Positions 30,738 through 61,036 of a stretch of DNA of 64,000 nucleotides are shown here, in pieces; the first letter of the stretch is position 1, and each line of letters starts with the position of its first letter. The position numbers and the translations under genes were made by a program. The stretch is from an uncultured Phycisphaeraceae bacterium (GTDB taxonomy: Bacteria > Planctomycetota > Phycisphaerae > WQYP01), in NCBI GenBank assembly GCA_964610975.1, contig CAZSYN010000003.1, forward strand, positions 195,955-259,954, in the 5' to 3' direction. The notes beneath the pieces were generated by a model. That model worked only from the letters and a program-made list of their open reading frames with translations, made no database searches and was not told the origin of the DNA.

Positions 30738-33102
30738 TTATTTTGCTGGAGCGATCGGCATTAATTGCCCGTCGCGTATGTCATATGCGTAAAAATGATC
30801 ATCGCCGCAAAACGTCATCACGTCAGGTATCGGCGATTTGTCTCCGCTAGCCAGGATAATGGCCGAGGCGGAATCCGGTTTTAGTAAAGACTTCGGCCAA
30901 CTTTGCGGAAATGCATCAGGAATCAGAAGCAGATCCGCCCCGTTCAGGTGAATATTACAGATCAACGCGCCCTGCGCCGGGGTCATGACGGGAACATCCC
31001 GCCGCGGCGGCCATATCACATTAGCCTGTAGCAGAGGCGTAGTCAGCGCATCACCCGCGGCCAGCGGAACCGGCGTTACGCCAAGATGCTCAAGTTGCTC
31101 AAGCCATACGCCAATCTGCCATTTATGATGTCGGGAAAGTTCCGCCTGCTGGCTCAGGTATACATACGGAATGCGGTATCGCCGCGCCAGATAGGCCGCG
31201 CCGCCGGCATGCCGATCATCAGCATGACTCAGCAACAGCGAATCAATATGACGAATACCCTTGCGCCGCAGGAATTGATCAACATGATGCAGAGCAAATC
31301 GTTCCGATCCGGGATTGATCACAACAGTTTGCTGATCATCATGCATGATAACGGAGCGCCCCAGCACCCAGAGTTTTGTCCCTGTTGGTGCAGTCAACAT
31401 ATACCAGGTCATCACGCCAGCCATTGCGGCAAGGATCATCAGCAATGCCGAAGCGCGAGAAAATCGCAATTGCCTGCGTAACATCACCAGGATGATCACC
31501 ACAAAAAATACCACCACAAGCCACAACGGCAGCGGTCTGATCGCCACAGCCGATCCTGGTATGCGCGAAAGCCAAATGATCAGGTCATTCATCATCTGCG
31601 CGCACCACGCGGCCGGCGCAGCCAGAAAACTCATGCCCATCGCGCTGACAATCAGATGGCACAATCCCACAATCAGGCACGCCGAAACAACCGGCATGGC
31701 CACCAATCCTGATACGACAGCAAGCGGATTAACCTGGGCAAAATGATACGCCACCAGCGGCGCGGAAATCAGCGCGCCGGTGATATTGGTGAGCTCTGCC
31801 AGCAGAACCGAAAAACGCACGCGCAGCCACCAGAACGCCGGCCGGGTACCGATAGCGCGTGTAATCATCGCATTGCGCTCATACCACCCTAAAAGCAAAG
31901 CATCATGCAGTCGCGGAGCGATCAAAATCAGCCCGGCAGTCGTAGCAAAAGAAAGCTGTAATCCCGCATCACCAATATCCGCAGGCCGCAACCACAGGCA
32001 GATTATCAGCGCACCAGCAAGAATATTCAGCGCCTGCATCGGGCGCGTAGCGAGAGACGCAAGAGCAAAAAACGTCAGAGCGATGGCCGCGCGAAGAATC
32101 GGCGGGCCTGCCGGCGTGGCCGCCACATAAAGCCACACCACCAGCAGCATCAACAACACGCGGATTTTGGGCCGCTGCGTCACCGGATGCAGTAGCAGCC
32201 AGACAAATCCCGCCACCAGTACGATATGCGAGCCGGAAATGGCCAGCAGATGTGCCACGCCCGCATCCGTAAACGCCTGCGCGATTGACTGCATCGCCGG
32301 TGAGCGATAACCAAGCACCAACGCCTGAAGTGCGTCGCCAGCCTGCGCATCAATCGGAGCAACATCCGCCTGAATTTTGTTTCGCGCAAACTGCCGGAAG
32401 CGCTCAAGCAGATCCGTCATGCGGGGAAGATATTCCTGCTGTGGCAATTTGCGAACCTGAATCGGATAACGCGCCCACACGGAACCGTAAATGCGTGAGG
32501 ATGCCAGGTACTGGCGATAATCAAAAGATCCCGGATATTCCGCTTTTTTTGGCCGCCGCGCATAGCCGATGATTTCCGCACGGTCTCCCAGATTCAGATC
32601 AACCTTTGCCGGCACGCGCAATGTCACAATTCCGCTGGCCGCAACCCATTGATCGCCAAGCTGAATCTGCTCGACTTCCGCCAGACAAAATTGCTGATCC
32701 GGAAGGCGGATCGGGCCCGCAAATTCGACTTTTTGCGGCATGCTTGTTACGCGTAGACGTACCTGCCGCCACGCCGGTTCCTCCGGCAGCCAGTGCGCAA
32801 CATGCTGAGGCTCAACATAATGAGAATAAAGGGTATAAGTTCCGCCGCCAAAGCTGATAATGGCCAGAGCAAGCAGAATTTGAGCGACATAATGAAAAAA
32901 AACGGTATCGCGACAGAATTTCCGTCACGCCATAGGCCAGCAGAAAGCCGCATGTCATCCGGATATAAAAAAGGATATCCCATTGTGCGACATGGCCGGT
33001 AATCAGACCAATAACCCATAAAATCGCGGCCGGCACCAGCGGATTAAGCGCCAGTAATTCCCGGAATCTCAGCGGTATTGTTTCGTCATCAGATGCCAGC
33101 AT
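30738..33102 (-). pseudogene. comEC: ComEC/Rec2 DNA internalisation channel, split by a 1-nt frameshift in a homopolymer
   Basis: The 667-aa ORF (30738..32741) carries the OB-fold/DUF4131-like region, the multi-TM competence domain and a metallo-beta-lactamase domain (LLLSHADDRHAGGAAYL). The N-terminal TM segment lies in ORF 32812..33102. Removing one base from the A8 run at 32895-32902 (T8 on the coding strand) gives a continuous reading: ...RYRFFHYVAQILLALAIISFGGGTYTLYSHYVEPQHVAHWLPEEPAWRQVRLRVTSMPQKVEF... Confidence 0.85.
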
Positions 33103-33146
33103 GATAGCGCATGAGCATCCTGTGGCCGGGGAGGATTGTCAACGAT

Positions 33147-33317
33147 AGAGCCTATCCGAATAACCCAGCGGCGGTCTGCTGGTCTGCCGGCTCATCTGCG
33201 GCGTCCTCAGACCTCGGTATATTGTAGAATATGCCTCGGTCCTGCGTCCTTGCAGATAAACCGGCATCCTGCGCATCCCTTACCACAGGGTTATTCGGAT
33301 AGGCTCTTATTCCGCGG
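33147..33317 (+). repeat. Structured ~171-nt palindromic element, copy 1, in the trpE 5' region
   Basis: The outer inverted repeat is a perfect 20 bp: agagcctatccgaataaccc / gggttattcggataggctct. It shares four conserved blocks with the copy at 34925..35088. Confidence 0.85.
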
Positions 33318-33401
33318 GGTCGCGAATCATGCCGTCTGTTGCTACAATTTATATGATTCGTGACCTTGTTTCCGGGCACTTGTTGGCCCCAGGAGAAAAC
33401 C

Positions 33402-34925
33402 GTGCCGCAGTCAGCCATTCCGTCACTTGATTCCTTTATCTCGCTGGCCGAAACCGGCGCAGCGATTCCCGTTTACCGCACACTGCTGGCGGATCATCTC
33501 ACACCCGTCAGCGCTTATGAGCGCGTCGCGGCCGGCAGCACTCATTCTTTTCTGCTTGAGTCAGTCGTCGGCGGCGAACGTATCGGCCGATACTCCATCA
33601 TCGGCACGCATCCGCGCACCGTTATTCATGCGCGCGGCAACACCGTCACACTGCATTCGGCCGGCGCATCCGCCAAAACGTATCAGTCCGCAGACCCGCT
33701 TAAGGATCTTGAGTCGCTGATGCAAAACAGCAAGGGTGTGCGCGTTCCCGGACTGCCATCTCTCTTTGGCGGCGCGGTGGGTTACGCCGGTTACGACACG
33801 GTGCGCTATCTTGAGCCTGAAAAACTCAACAAATCGCCTCATGACGATCGCGGCCTGCCTGATATGATTTTTGGCCTCTATGACGATCTGGTTATTTTTG
33901 ATCACGTGCAAAAAACCATTCTGGTCGTCGCCACAATGCATGTCACGGCTGATTCCGGCGATAACCGCAAGCTCTATGACGCGGCGCTGAATCGCATTGA
34001 CGCCACGGTCAAAAAACTACAGTCGCCATTGCCGACAAGCCTCAGCGCGATTGACCTCACCAGCGAGGCTCGGCCCAAATATGACTCAAACTTCACAAAA
34101 GCTGATTTTGAAAAAGCCGTTCTCTCCGCCAAAGAATACATTAAAGCCGGCGACATTTTTCAGCTTGTGCTCTCGCAGCGCCTGCGCACACGCACGGCCG
34201 CGCATCCGCTTGATGTATATCGCCGGCTGCGCGTGGTTAATCCGTCGCCATACATGTTTTTTATGGTCGCTCCGGAATGCACGCTTGTTGGCAGTTCGCC
34301 GGAAATCATGTGTCGCGTGGAAAACGGCATCATCACCAACCGTCCGCTTGCCGGTACGCGCCGCCGCGGCGTAACGCCCGAAGAAGACAAGGCGCTTGAG
34401 CAGGAACTGCTGGCCGATCCGAAAGAACGCGCCGAGCATATCATGCTCGTCGATCTTGGCCGCAATGATGTCGGCCGAGTCGCCGAAATCGGCAGCGTCA
34501 AGATCAGTGACGTCATGACCGTTGAGCGCTACAGTCACGTCATGCACATCGTCTCAAATGTCACCGGCAAACTTGAGCATGGCCGTTCCGCTTTTGACGC
34601 CCTGCGCATGGCGTTGCCCGTCGGCACGGTTTCCGGCGCGCCCAAAATCCGCGCCATGCAGATTATTGATGAACTTGAGCCAACTCGCCGCGGCCCTTAC
34701 GCCGGCGCGGTCGGTTACGTCGACTATAACGGTAACATGGACACAGCCATCGCTCTGCGCACCATGGTCATTGTGCCCGATGGCAATGAGTGGGTTGTGT
34801 ATGTTCAGGCCGGCGCCGGGCTCGTTGCCGATTCCGTGCCCGAAAACGAATATCAGGAAACGCTCAACAAAGCTGCGGGCCTGCTTAAGGCTGTGGCGCT
34901 TGCGGATCAGGCCCGCAACGTCTGA
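33402..34925 (+). CDS. trpE: Anthranilate synthase component I
   Basis: LLESVVGGERIGRYSIIG, PSPYMFF, GTRRRG, HIMLVDLGRNDVGRV and AGAGLVADSVPENEYQET are canonical TrpE blocks. The GTG at 33402, preceded by AGGAGA, is preferred. The track start is 33360. Confidence 0.93.
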   Translation: MPQSAIPSLDSFISLAETGAAIPVYRTLLADHLTPVSAYERVAAGSTHSFLLESVVGGERIGRYSIIGTHPRTVIHARGNTVTLHSAGASAKTYQSADPLKDLESLMQNSKGVRVPGLPSLFGGAVGYAGYDTVRYLEPEKLNKSPHDDRGLPDMIFGLYDDLVIFDHVQKTILVVATMHVTADSGDNRKLYDAALNRIDATVKKLQSPLPTSLSAIDLTSEARPKYDSNFTKADFEKAVLSAKEYIKAGDIFQLVLSQRLRTRTAAHPLDVYRRLRVVNPSPYMFFMVAPECTLVGSSPEIMCRVENGIITNRPLAGTRRRGVTPEEDKALEQELLADPKERAEHIMLVDLGRNDVGRVAEIGSVKISDVMTVERYSHVMHIVSNVTGKLEHGRSAFDALRMALPVGTVSGAPKIRAMQIIDELEPTRRGPYAGAVGYVDYNGNMDTAIALRTMVIVPDGNEWVVYVQAGAGLVADSVPENEYQETLNKAAGLLKAVALADQARNV

Positions 34926-35088
34926 GAGCCTCTTTGAGAAGTATCCGGGGCCATCTGCTGGTCTGCCTTTGGGCCTGCGGCGTCCTCGGACACTCGCTGA
35001 TATTAGCTAATATCACTCGGTCCTGCGTCCTTGCAGGCCCAAAGGCATCCTGCGCATCTGCCCGCCGCCTACTTCTCAAACTGGCTCT
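34925..35088 (+). repeat. Structured ~164-nt palindromic element, copy 2, starting at the last base of the trpE stop codon
   Basis: The outer inverted repeat is agagcctctttgagaagta / tacttctcaaactggctct (17/19). The inner stem gcctttgggcctgc / gcaggcccaaaggc is a perfect 14 bp. The conserved blocks are identical to copy 1. Confidence 0.85.
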
Positions 35089-35168
35089 GATATTTTTAGC
35101 GTTATTCGCTCAGCATAACTTGACGATTAGCCATTCCTTGTGCACATTGTGCGCGAGGAATTTTTGTT

Positions 35169-36014
35169 ATGAAAAAACTGACCGCCATGTGTCTTGTCTT
35201 CGCGTTATGCCTGCCTGCCCTGGCGCAGACAAACGTCAAGTCATCCGTCACGCGCCAACTCTCCGGCGCAACCGAAGCTCAGCGCAAAGGCAAAATTGCC
35301 GAAAACTGGCGCGAATTTCCCGCCGAAGACGGTACCCAGGTTCGCCTTTATGTGGCGCATCCTGATTTAAAATACGCCGGCGAAGTTCCCAATATGCCAG
35401 CCCTGCTCATCATTCAGGAATGGTGGGGAGTTAACGAAGATATTCAGGCCCGCACGCGCGATTTTGCACAGCGCGGCTATTATTCCGTAGCCGTTGATCT
35501 CTACGACGGCAAAGCCACCGCCGACCCCAAAGAAGCGGCCGCGCTCAAATCCGCACTGACTGACTCGGCCGCATTATTGCGCCTAAAAACCGGCGTCGAT
35601 TTTATTCATACGCAAGTTGATCGCGGTATTGTCAACGGCGACAAACTTGCCGCTATCGGCTGGTGTATGGGCGGCACGCAGGCGCTGAACCTTGCCATTG
35701 CCGATCCGCGTATTCATGCTCTCGTTATTTTTTACGGCGGTGATATCGTCACGGATACTGACAAACTCAAAGACATCCGCGGCCCGGTGCTCGGCGTTTT
35801 TGGCAATGACGACAAAAATCCGTCGCCAGATCGTGTGAATATATGGGAAAAAGCGCTCAAGGATTCCGGCAAAGACGTCACCATTCTGCGCTACGACGGC
35901 GCAGGCCACGCCTTTGCCAGCGATGCGGCAAAGCCGCTCGGCATGTATCGCCCCACACAAGCCGCCGACGCTTGGGCCAAAACATGGTCATGGCTTGAAA
36001 AAACGATGAAGTAA
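35169..36014 (+). CDS. Dienelactone hydrolase family protein (secreted)
   Basis: 281 aa with signal peptide MKKLTAMCLVFALCLPALAQ. The nucleophile motif is IGWCMGG, and the C-terminal GAGHAF fits the DLH catalytic His region. Confidence 0.85.
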   Translation: MKKLTAMCLVFALCLPALAQTNVKSSVTRQLSGATEAQRKGKIAENWREFPAEDGTQVRLYVAHPDLKYAGEVPNMPALLIIQEWWGVNEDIQARTRDFAQRGYYSVAVDLYDGKATADPKEAAALKSALTDSAALLRLKTGVDFIHTQVDRGIVNGDKLAAIGWCMGGTQALNLAIADPRIHALVIFYGGDIVTDTDKLKDIRGPVLGVFGNDDKNPSPDRVNIWEKALKDSGKDVTILRYDGAGHAFASDAAKPLGMYRPTQAADAWAKTWSWLEKTMK

Positions 36015-37208: not shown

Positions 37209-37336
37209 GACGACCTCCGCATGTTGATGTGTCAGGTATAGTTTACCGGAGAGCCCGCCGGCAGACCAGAGCGGATTTTACCCTCATCAGGAGACCGCTT
37301 GCTCCTTTTGGGCAATACCTGTGCTACAATATCGGC

Positions 37337-49794: not shown

Positions 49795-49948
49795 AAGCCC
49801 CATTTCCCTTTATGGGATGGGGCACAAACCCATCATCATAAGCAATTGCTCATGATCGCAACGAATCGTTCACACAGGATTGAGTGCTCAATGGATAATT
49901 GATCGCTCGCACATCCATTGTGCCCCGCCCCATCAAGAAGCGGGGTTT
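49795..49948. repeat. ~154-bp MITE/REP-like element, copy 1
   Basis: It has terminal GC hairpins (gcccca...tggggc and ccccgc...gcgggg) and an internal inverted repeat (ggggcacaa...ttgtgcccc). By eye it is roughly 80 percent identical to the reverse complement of 51288..51439. Its core attgctcatgatcgcaacgaatcgttcacaca resembles the core of the 158-bp array unit. Confidence 0.85.
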
Positions 49949-49957
49949 AAAATCGGC

Positions 49958-50599
49958 TTACTTTGCCGCGGCAAAATTTTCGCCAACCTTCGCCCAGTTC
50001 ACCACATCCCAGATCGCCGAAAGATAATCAGGCCGGCGGTTCTGATACTTCAGATAGTACGCATGTTCCCATACGTCAACACCAAATATCGGCTTGCCGG
50101 CCACAGCGCCCGTCGGCGCAAGCACGGCTTCCGGCATAATCGGATTATCCTGATTGGCCGTTGACGTGACGGCAAGCTTGCCATCCTTGACAATCAGCCA
50201 CGCCCAGCCGGAACCAAAACGCTTGGCGCCCGCATCCTGAATCTTCGTTTTAAGATCCGCCAGTGAACCAAACGACGCATTGATGGCATCCGCCAGCGCG
50301 CCGGTCGGCTCGCCACCTTTGCCCTTTGGCGCCAGAACCTGCCAGAACAGGCTGTGATTCGCATGGCCGCCGCCGTTATTACGCACGGCCGGGCGAATAT
50401 CTTCCGGCACGCTCGTGAGATTCTTGATGATCTCCTCAACGGACTTGCTCTCAAAATCCGCCTTGCCGGCGATGGCATTGTTGAGATTCGTCACATAAGC
50501 CTGATGATGCTTGCCATGATGAATCTGCATGGTCGTCGTATCAATTACCGGCTCAAGAGCGGCAAAATCATACGGTAAAGCAGGCAATGTAAAAGCCAT
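49958..50599 (-). CDS. Fe/Mn-family superoxide dismutase
   Basis: [36 protein letters not shown]..., [37 protein letters not shown]. The ATG at 50599 is preferred over the track extension. Confidence 0.93.
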
Positions 50600-50786
50600 A
50601 ACTCGTATCCTTTCCCACAAAAAGCAGCAGATATTTTGCCGCGCGGCAAAACTCGCTGACTCACGCATGTTTCCTATTTGATAGGCGGATATTTCCGCTG
50701 CGTCAAGCAACCAAATAGTCCTTTTTTAAGGATTCTCAATGATTGCCGATCATCTCCTTTCTCCGCATCTCTGTTATACTCATCGC

Positions 50787-51263
50787 ATGGAAATTATCAG
50801 CACTTCAGTTGAGCAAACCTATGACCTGGGCGAGCGCATCGGCCGCGTCGTCCCGGCCGGCGTCACCATCACGCTCTCCGGCACGCTTGGCGCAGGCAAA
50901 ACGCACTTCGTCCGCGGACTGGCCCGCGGCGCACAAGTCGCCGATGTCAATCTTGTCTCAAGCCCCACGTATGTTTTCCTCAATATTTATCAGTCCGCTC
51001 CGCAGAACCTGCATAGCAAAACCGTTTATCACCTTGATGCTTACCGCGCATCCTCTTCCGAAGATTTTTCGGCCGTCGGTTTTGAGGAACTCCTTCAGGA
51101 TCAGGCCATCACCGTTGTTGAGTGGCCAGAACGCATTGCCGATATTCTCCCGCCGGACCGCATCGCCATCACCATTGAGCAACTTGACGAAACCGAACGC
51201 AAATTTGTCATAGAGGCCACCGGCCCGCAATCCCGCGACATCCTCGCGCAACTTTCCGCCTGA
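50787..51263 (+). CDS. tsaE: tRNA t6A37 biosynthesis ATPase TsaE
   Basis: MEIISTSVEQTYDLGERIG...ITLSGTLGAGKTHFVRGLARG...SPTYVFLNIY...HLDAYR...VEWPE is the canonical TsaE/YjeE pattern. Confidence 0.85.
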   Translation: MEIISTSVEQTYDLGERIGRVVPAGVTITLSGTLGAGKTHFVRGLARGAQVADVNLVSSPTYVFLNIYQSAPQNLHSKTVYHLDAYRASSSEDFSAVGFEELLQDQAITVVEWPERIADILPPDRIAITIEQLDETERKFVIEATGPQSRDILAQLSA

Positions 51264-51287
51264 TAATAAAAATTGTTGATCCTCAAG

Positions 51288-51439
51288 CCCCGCTCCTTCA
51301 TGGGGCGGGGCACAATGGGTATGTGAACGATCAATATCTCTTGAGTACTCAATGATGCGCGAACGATTTGCTACCATGATGAGCAATTGTCTATGATCAT
51401 TGGTTTGTGCCCCATCCCACAAGGGGAATGGGGCTTGTT
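51288..51439. repeat. ~152-bp MITE/REP-like element, copy 2 (inverted relative to copy 1)
   Basis: Its reverse complement aligns along its whole length with 49795..49948. It has the same terminal hairpins (aagccccgc...gcggggc and gccccatcccacaaggggaatggggc). Confidence 0.85.
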
Positions 51440-60337: not shown

Positions 60338-61036
60338 ATGGCAAGACACGCGCGCATAGCACCGGGCGGATGGGTTTACCACGTTGTGAACCGATCCGCG
60401 GGACGTTTCAAAATGCTTCAAAGCCAGAAAGATTTTCTGGCCTTTGAGCAGATCATGGCCCAGGCGCAGGAACGTTTTCCTTTGCGAATTTTGTCTTATT
60501 GCCTGATGGGTAACCATTGGCATTTTGTGGTTTGGCCGGAAAAAGACGGCGATCTGACTTCCTATTTTCGCTGGCTCACACATACCCACGCCATGCGCTG
60601 GCGCGTGGCGCATAATACAGTGGGATACGGACATCTTTATCAGGGACGTTTTAAGAGTTTCCCGGTTCAGGGTGGCGCATCATTTCTCAAGGTATGCCGC
60701 TATGTTGAACGCAACGCGCTTTCGGCCGAACTGGTCAAAAATGCAGAAGACTGGCGCTGGAGCAGCCTGTGGGTTCGCAACAACGGCACGCCTGAACAAA
60801 AAGCTCTGCTGACGCCCTGGCCGATAGAACAACCCAGAGACTGGCTAGTGCGTGTCAATGAGATGATGACCGCCAAAGAAATTACTCGCTGGCGCCAGAG
60901 TTTATTGCGAGGGAGTCCATTTGGGGACGACGAATGGACGCGCCAGAGTTCAATTGAATTAGGCCTCGAGTACACTCTGCGCGATGAGGGCCGCCCCAGA
61001 TCGATTAAAACGGGGACGCAGCTAGTTAAAAACTAG
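60338..61036 (+). mobile_element. REP-associated tyrosine transposase (RAYT, IS200/Y1 HUH family)
   Basis: 232 aa. The HUH motif is in LMGNHWHFVVWP and the catalytic Tyr region is CRYVERNALSAELV. The gene is flanked by a 20-nt direct repeat, aaacggggacgcagctagtt, at 60283-60302 and 61008-61027. The downstream copy forms a perfect hairpin. Confidence 0.85.

Follow-up and report, generated by a model that had tools for sequence, protein, structure and literature searches.

The gene trpE in a 64,000-nucleotide stretch of an uncultured Phycisphaeraceae genome is bracketed by two copies of a palindromic element of about 160 bp. We conclude that these are independent insertions of a non-autonomous MITE (miniature inverted-repeat transposable element) presumably mobilised by insertion sequences (ISs) of the IS5 family, and we give this reading as a whole a probability of about 0.87. 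The trpE-flanking pair is selfish DNA of a familiar type and not a pair of regulatory RNAs, and the family is apparently an ordinary MITE of the IS5 lineage in Phycisphaerae that has so far gone undescribed. The observations that carry this conclusion are the copy number of the element, its ends, its target duplications, the occurrence of autonomous ISs with matching ends, and the patterns of covariation and decay in its stems.

A prokaryotic MITE has been defined as an element shorter than 500 bp that has no coding capacity and has terminal inverted repeats (TIRs) of about 4 to 30 bp, direct repeats around young copies and a stable stem-loop (PMC10969869), and the element has all of these. 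The TIRs of such an element are shared with an autonomous IS from which transposase can come in trans. The AT-richness that is typical of MITEs, without being part of their definition, is confined here to the apex: the elements have a G+C content of 56 to 63%, compared with 52.5% for the genome.

The two copies at the trpE locus

The stretch (the window, at its full length) is C3:195955-259954 of the source genome G000 (4.9 Mb, 32 contigs, 52.5% G+C). Contig positions are given below with a C prefix and window positions without one. The features of the locus are as follows (CM, covariance model):

33145-33147: ATA, the left flanking triplet of copy 1; its right flank is TTA at 33307-33309
33148-33306, + strand: MITE copy 1, subfamily A, 159 bp (nhmmer and CM matches, C3:229102-229260)
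33148-33166, + strand, with its partner at 33288-33306: left TIR of copy 1, GAGCCTATCCGAATAACCC, 0 mismatches at both ends
33193-33257, + strand: central core of copy 1, reading CTGC / GGCGTCCTC / GGNCC / AT-rich apex / GGNCC / TGCGTCCTT / GCA
33402-34925, + strand: trpE, anthranilate synthase component I, 507 aa (from the translation)
34923-34925, + strand: TGA, both the trpE stop codon and the left target-duplication copy of copy 2; the right TGA is at 35088-35090
34926-35087, + strand: MITE copy 2, subfamily B, 162 bp (nhmmer and CM matches, C3:230880-231041)
34926-34946, + strand, with its partner at 35067-35087 (reverse complement GAGCCAGTTTGAGAAGTAGGC): left TIR of copy 2, GAGCCTCTTTGAGAAGTATCC
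34972-35038, + strand: conserved central core of copy 2 (core CM R2, C3:230926-230992)
35133-35161, + strand: terminator-like hairpin (13 bp) followed by a T-run, outside the element and downstream of copy 2

A preliminary description, made from the letters of the window, had reported two same-strand elements sharing four blocks, with intervening segments that differ between the copies but stay complementary. Both elements exist on the + strand, with all four blocks as quoted, and they align end to end. The stems are present too: the outer arms of copy 1 (33147-33171 and 33283-33307) are 25 nt long and 92% complementary, those of copy 2 (34925-34948 and 35065-35088) are 24 nt long and 83% complementary, and the inner arms of copy 2 (34964-34978 and 35033-35047) are complementary over all 15 nt. 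The limits of the elements had to be redrawn. The end of copy 1 had been placed at 33317, some 11 nt too far, and where each copy seemed to begin with 'AGAGCC', the first A is not part of the element but the last letter of the triplet on its left (ATA in copy 1; TGA, the trpE stop, in copy 2); the trailing triplets are TTA and TGA, respectively.

Copy 1 occupies a divergent intergenic region and ends 95 nt before the trpE start codon. It belongs to a subfamily of 9 copies that are at least 88% identical, and its core was located both by the core CM R2 (C3:229147-229211) and in alignment A5. The ATA and TTA at its flanks are a decayed or imperfect 3-bp target duplication. The trpE gene itself has a GTG start preceded by AGGAG and the TGA stop listed above, and an identical TrpE protein has Pfam PF04715 and PF00425 on record. 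Copy 2 has the junctions TGA/GAGCC...GGCTC/TGA. It gives the top CM score (178 bits), is 97.6% identical to C15:41701-41864, and has a 16-nt end similar to the GAGCCTGTTTGAGAAG / GAGCGTGTTTGAGAAG ends of an autonomous IS of a related genome (L119, see below). Since copies 1 and 2 fall in different subfamilies (A and B), they are two independent insertions and not a designed pair, and there is no sign of any joint action.

On this reading copy 1 entered intergenic DNA upstream of trpE, and copy 2 the TGA stop codon of the gene. As the duplicated triplet of copy 2 is the stop codon itself, the insertion regenerated the trpE stop; the empty site before insertion would have read ...CGCAACGTCTGATATTTTTAGCG... 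Lying between this stop and the terminator-like hairpin at 35133-35161, copy 2 is probably part of the trpE 3' untranslated region. The hairpin ends 8 nt before the ATG of the next gene (35169, encoding a signal-peptide protein) and could be the terminator native to trpE; alternatively, it could act on this downstream gene, as a translational or an attenuator hairpin. Specific targeting of stop codons was considered and rejected: only 5 of 38 copies are flanked by the stop of an open reading frame (ORF) of at least 100 codons, which is not significant against a rough expectation of about 8%, and such cases are an expected by-product of the TNA target described in the next section.

Element ends and target duplications

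The elements are 158 to 164 bp long and have the ends GAGC...GCTC or, in relatives, GGCTC...GAGCC. Every full copy in the source genome is of the GAGC...GCTC type with T-N-A on both flanks, and every full copy carries TIRs of 16 to 21 nt. Over all genomes, TNA is present on both flanks in 59 or 60 of 68 GAG-type copies. The two flanking triplets are identical in 34 of these 68 copies compared with 18.8 expected (p<1e-4; the maximum in 10,000 shuffles was 29). A second end type, GGCTCTGTCTGAAAAC, occurs in relatives and is flanked by TA on both sides in 12 of 14 copies. The preliminary description had listed a MITE among its options, and this option was correct. It had also held that the terminal structure of a known IS or MITE, together with target-site duplications, would refute its reading; the family has ends and duplications of this kind.

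Distribution of the family

An nhmmer search of the source genome contigs, seeded with copies 1 and 2, recovered about 25 full-length copies (E values of 1e-15 to 1e-47, a similarity far above chance) and 16 shorter matches on 18 contigs. At least 13 copies of the source genome are internally deleted. Three copies at unrelated loci are 100% identical, each with a perfect duplication, which suggests recent activity.

A covariance model (R1) built from alignment A2 of the 25 copies was run on 45 related genomes from the taxonomic family of the source genome and matches in 19 of them, which cover 8 of 17 genera. These matches are always about 162 nt long, reach 39 copies per genome and very often lie at contig ends. 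With a model restricted to the core (R2), diverged relatives were detected in two other Phycisphaerae families as well, in every case as multiple copies. Among public genomes, a scan for the exact pattern gave a match in an uncultured Phycisphaerales metagenome-assembled genome. In a sample of 400 other Planctomycetota genomes the exact core pattern gave chance or tandem-repeat matches only, and nothing similar to the element was found in a plasmid collection.

All 25 full copies are intergenic, that is, between long ORFs. Twelve lie between tandem genes, nine between divergent and four between convergent ones; in the tandem group, 7 copies point the same way as the genes and 5 the opposite way, so that there is no orientation bias. 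The possibility that the element carries a small ORF was rejected, as any given frame is open in at most 61% of 72 copies.

The family has practical consequences for annotation. In Phycisphaerae genomes the 160-bp hairpins and their 48- to 117-bp derivatives should be masked as MITEs and not annotated as small RNAs, riboswitches or terminators. The family also accounts for many of the contig breaks in metagenome-assembled genomes of this class.

Autonomous insertion sequences with the same ends

The 45 related genomes were searched with NF033580 and the ends of the resulting ISs were then inspected. Matches to PF13340, PF01609 and NF033580 are present in the source genome and in 22 of the 45. 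Among the relatives there are complete IS5-family ISs of 850 to 986 bp with the same 16-nt termini and duplications as the MITEs:

L099 (genome G004): 986 bp, TA duplication, both termini GGCTCTGTCTGAAAAC; MITEs with exactly these ends occur in G004 as well
L106 (genome G019): 917 bp, 16-nt ends and type of duplication as in the MITEs
L119 (genome G046): 850 bp, ends GAGCCTGTTTGAGAAG / GAGCGTGTTTGAGAAG, flanked by TTA on both sides

The source genome has an intact IS5-family IS of 889 bp (C3:124409-125297) with two overlapping frames (DUF4096 and DDE_Tnp_1; NF033580). Its TIR, GGTTCTGTCTCATAAG, shares 12 of 16 positions with GGCTCTGTCTGAAAAC. A second IS in this genome has GAG ends but is disrupted: its parts lie at different contig ends, and a further repeat interrupts it.

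ISs of the IS1031/IS427-like group of IS5 have ends that start with GAG or GG and generate a duplication of 2 to 4 bp at TNA or TA. The MITE family shows these same end and duplication features. A 3-nt target has been noted for IS1031-group elements (PMC2516522), with which the TNA duplication agrees.

From these similarities we infer that the MITE owes its mobility to transposases acting in trans, namely short ones of the IS5 family with the DUF4096 plus DDE_Tnp_1 architecture (NCBIfam NF033580, IS427/IS1031-like group). The transposase would bind the TIRs of about 16 nt (GAGCCTNTTTNANAAN in the source genome) and insert the element at TNA with duplication of the triplet, while the sister end type GGCTCTGTCTGAAAAC would duplicate TA. 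The similarity between ISs and MITEs ends after about 16 nt, which indicates that the MITE interior is not a deletion remnant of ISs of the L099, L106 or L119 type. An origin of the interior from the autonomous ISs was rejected for this reason and because the GCGTCCT motif of the core is absent from them.

An IS4-family IS was also considered as a parent. A 42-nt fragment of a MITE left end adjoins a truncated IS4-family transposase gene (C1:497583-497874), but intact homologues of this IS in relatives have an unrelated TIR, CACTRCTGTCCGGTTAA, also found at C1:498005; IS4 was rejected as parent and the junction is secondary. The region C1:497583-498021 is what remains of an IS4-family IS, including a TIR of its own (498005-498021), and the MITE fragment has taken the place of the C-terminus of the transposase. 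At the junction, the expected ...QTQIW codons are similar to block 1 of the MITE (GCAGACCAGCAGATGG), so that a microhomology-mediated deletion is possible there.

Covariation and decay of the stems

The preliminary description had noted compensatory changes in the stems of the two copies, and these hold throughout the family. We aligned one consensus per subfamily (A4, 16 sequences) and derived a structure with RNAalifold. It has 46 pairs, 36 of which are changed on both sides. Standard pairs fill 93.8% of the cells, compared with 72.5% after shuffling (a value as high was reached in 0 of 500 shuffles) and 26 to 43% if the partner is slid by 1 to 3 columns. Among the 736 cells there are 148 double changes compared with about 9 wobble pairs; the switches between subfamilies are almost all from one Watson-Crick pair to another.

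The picture within subfamilies is different. Of the private changes at paired positions, 313 of 339 (92%) break the pair, and those giving G·T (77) are about as frequent as those giving A·C (82). The density of private changes is 3 to 6% in all parts of the element, the conserved core included. Private changes ignore both structure and strand, which implies that resident copies decay freely and that it is the multiplying lineages that have kept the palindrome. The covariation is genuine without being the signature of an RNA. The pattern is the one expected if complementarity serves propagation or is mechanically regenerated from arm to arm, for example by template switching within the hairpin, and not if each copy supplies the host with an RNA. 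The hairpin looks like a property of propagating lineages at the DNA level and not like a host RNA.

We infer the following for the upkeep of the palindrome. The entire element, one long imperfect palindrome, would be maintained as DNA in those lineages that are still propagating, and single copies would decay neutrally after insertion. A hairpin or cruciform may serve to join both ends for synapsis in an element whose length does not exceed the persistence length of DNA. Alternatively, the arms may be corrected against each other through template switching. The family thus provides a clean natural data set on why MITEs remain palindromic: helices that co-vary between subfamilies, together with resident decay lacking a strand signal, separate selection for propagation from selection for host function.

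The conserved core and its loss in deleted derivatives

The centre of the element, a core of about 65 nt, is by far its best-conserved part across genera and is more conserved than the stems near the TIRs. It is made up of CTGC, GGCGTCCTC, GGNCC, an AT-rich palindromic apex, GGNCC, TGCGTCCTT and GCA. The two strands of its 9x9 internal loop form a direct repeat (GCGTCCT) and not an inverted one. The GGNCC helix co-varies (GACC/GGTC, ATCC/GGAT, CTCC/GGAG, GCCC/GGGC). As indicated above, the GCGTCCT motif is absent from the autonomous ISs.

The same core (GCGTCCT...GCGTCCT) is found in a third MITE-like type with unrelated ends of about 21 nt (CACTRCAGCGCGAYATTGGCC) and a different apex (AAGACC...GGTC):

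L037: G013:C3:21584-21668
L038: G057:C112:3566-3639
L050: G060:C224:418-561

No fewer than three unrelated types of transposon end (GAGCC-, GGCTC- and CACTRCAGCGCGAYATTGG-) precede the core.

Deleted forms of 48 to 117 bp have lost the centre and kept the TIRs and duplications. An 87-bp form is present three times (C10:177215-177301, C7:279008-279094 and C12:45649-45736) and a 73-bp form twice (C13:137247-137319 and C8:93244-93316), each copy with its own TNA or ACA duplication; the deletion in the 87-bp form joins two CCTGCG repeats. The recurrence of both forms shows that they moved without the core.

It is conceivable, though on balance we think it unlikely, that the core hairpin is a functional payload rather than filler. 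Its persistence across genera while the surrounding stems turn over, its association with several end types and its absence from the ISs would all fit this idea. Such a payload could be a protein-binding module, or a hairpin or cruciform in the DNA, through which elements shorter than the persistence length join their ends. The family would then represent a class of structure-dependent elements mobilised by DDE (aspartate-aspartate-glutamate) transposases. It could instead be a strand-specific RNA module that promotes retention of the element. If the core were required, either for synapsis of very short elements or as an RNA module or a protein-binding one, this would be a mechanistic point on DDE transposition of sub-persistence-length DNA.

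Evidence against a MITE and alternative explanations

Several observations weigh against two IS5-mobilised MITE insertions. No intact autonomous IS with exactly the A to F end types was found in the source draft genome, and the closest one is disrupted, although the three identical copies suggest recent activity. No precise empty site was found: further assemblies with an identical TrpE are represented by two 1.67-kb Logan contigs which break inside both MITEs, so that both insertions are present there too. For one copy in genome G002, the orthologous gene flank in six congeners is element-free within 1.5 kb, which counts in favour of a mobile element; the intergenic DNA is not alignable, and this is presence/absence variation and not a base-precise empty site. 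The reverse strand, taken as RNA, folds better by about 9 kcal/mol in 22 of 25 copies, and A·C exceeds G·U on the + strand if all copies are counted; neither set of counts is phylogenetically independent, and both are weak hints of a strand asymmetry. Finally, if the interior is passive filler the conservation of the core is left unexplained, since the core is absent from the ISs and yet dispensable for movement.

One alternative is that the element encodes or forms a structured RNA selected by the host, either cis-regulatory or a small RNA, with the copies at trpE modulating expression of the gene or stability of its mRNA. The strong covariation in five helices with conserved internal loops, the greater stability of the reverse strand and the probable co-transcription of copy 2, between the trpE stop and the terminator-like hairpin, could all be accommodated in this way, and the bacterial MITEs bcr1, ERIC and Correia are transcribed and can affect mRNA (PMC3184786, PMC10969869). 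We nevertheless regard a host-selected RNA as improbable. The region 32500-35800 has no relevant match in Rfam 15 at E<=10; double changes outnumber G·U pairs many times over, the stem switches being Watson-Crick ones; pairing is lost freely in resident copies, G·T and A·C being equally represented as expected without strand asymmetry; orientation with respect to the genes is unbiased (7 versus 5); and copies do not occupy conserved positions from one genome to another. The elements moreover have TIRs, target duplications and ISs that match them. The cis-regulatory RNA that the preliminary description had entertained is not supported by these results.

A terminator or insulator pair that isolates trpE transcription from its neighbours was another of its suggestions. 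A single gene is indeed bracketed by co-oriented copies with long hairpins (-85 kcal/mol), and TGATATTTTT follows directly after copy 2. The consensus scan, however, called no intrinsic terminator (a G+C-rich hairpin with a short loop and a T-run directly behind it) within either element, its only call on the + strand being the hairpin at 35133-35161, which is distinct from them. Copies 1 and 2 are members of different subfamilies, hence of independent origin by insertion, and across the genome copies are found in either orientation between divergent (9), convergent (4) and tandem (12) genes. Close pairs (<2.5 kb) are limited to 3 among 38 copies compared with 0.71 expected (P=0.03; the null spans the whole genome and takes no account of the confinement of copies to intergenic DNA), and the excess of gene-bracketing pairs is weak and marginal. 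We consider an insulator pair still less probable than a host-selected RNA. Different-subfamily copies 1 to 2 kb apart also surround a single ORF, as at trpE, at C7:41843-43002 and C22:22438-24477.

The least probable alternative is that these are repetitive extragenic palindromic (REP) sequences, or the hairpins formed by REP doublets (REPINs), moved as single-stranded hairpins by a REP-associated tyrosine transposase (RAYT, of the Y1/HUH type). The elements are palindromic, intergenic and multicopy, and four PF01797 (Y1_Tnp) genes are present in the genome, including the one at 60377-60715 of the window. But an element of about 160 bp with TIRs of 16 to 20 nt and a 3-bp target duplication has features that REPs and REPINs lack; REPs with a RAYT cluster around the Y1 gene, and every Y1_Tnp gene here is more than 25 kb from any copy; and DDE-type IS5 ISs have ends identical to those of the elements. 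The RAYT association that had been raised for the copies is effectively refuted.

Comparison with known elements

Eukaryotic Tourist-type MITEs (PIF/Harbinger) and the bacterial IS1031 and IS427 groups of IS5 share a 3-bp duplication of the T-N-A type, and their ends begin with GAG or GG followed by a sequence resembling C-T-G-T-T-T-G. The Phycisphaerae MITE resembles them in its T-N-A duplication, its end sequence, its short palindromic non-coding structure and its reliance, as we propose, on a DDE transposase in trans. It differs from Tourist, which needs a second, Myb-like protein, in that its presumed partner is a bacterial IS5_3 transposase of about 260 aa encoded by two overlapping frames.

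ERIC of Enterobacteria and Correia (NEMIS) of Neisseria are likewise MITE-like hairpin repeats inserted at TA-containing targets, a likeness to the present family. Co-transcription with the neighbouring genes is common among them, and they can change how stable the mRNA is (PMC3184786, PMC10969869). Orientation-dependent RNA effects have been shown experimentally for them, whereas the Phycisphaerae MITE has no orientation bias.

The closest precedents are Nezha for the architecture and bcr1 for the compensatory stem changes (PMC3184786). Nezha MITEs of Anabaena and Nostoc, about 130 to 170 bp long (PMC3184786), are similar in size, in having TIRs that match an intact co-occurring transposon, in their flanking direct repeats and very stable predicted hairpin, and in their intergenic position and patchy distribution among relatives. 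They belong to another phylum and have no sequence similarity to the present family; filled and empty sites were shown for Nezha and not for the Phycisphaerae MITE, and the latter has several swappable end types around one conserved core. The bcr1 repeat of the Bacillus cereus group (about 155 bp, with 5-bp direct repeats; PMC3184786) is likewise a mobile repeat of about 155 to 160 bp in which compensatory changes keep the predicted structure while copies vary in stability. It forms a two-hairpin 'cruciform-like' RNA fold, has a 5-bp duplication and is demonstrably transcribed, whereas the Phycisphaerae MITE folds into one long predicted hairpin, and its TNA duplication measures 3 bp.

Additional observations

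An inverse 13-nt fragment of the element had been reported at 37267-37279. The match exists but lies ten nucleotides upstream:

37257-37269, - strand: 13-nt match to block 1 and the variable stem of copy 1 (CTGGTCTGCCGGC), inside an ORF

It was not matched as a piece of the element by nhmmer or by the covariance models. As the two elements offer about 300 possible 13-mers, it is most likely due to chance.

The Y1_Tnp gene of the window (60377-60715, + strand; C3:256331-256669; PF01797, an IS200/IS605 TnpA or RAYT-like protein) has no association with the MITE family and may serve another palindromic repeat family of the source genome. At 49795-51439 of the window the profiles of the MITE family give no match, and the repeat pair there is of a different family.

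A 32-nt sequence, CCCGGCCCGTCCACTTTTTGTGGGGAAGGTCA, lies about 22 nt from six contig ends (C4:23, C11:23, C11:197506, C17:73558, C19:23 and C22:23). It has an internal copy at C22:19786 and also interrupts the GAG-ended IS5-type IS described above. Probably it marks the terminus of a further multicopy IS at which the assembly breaks.

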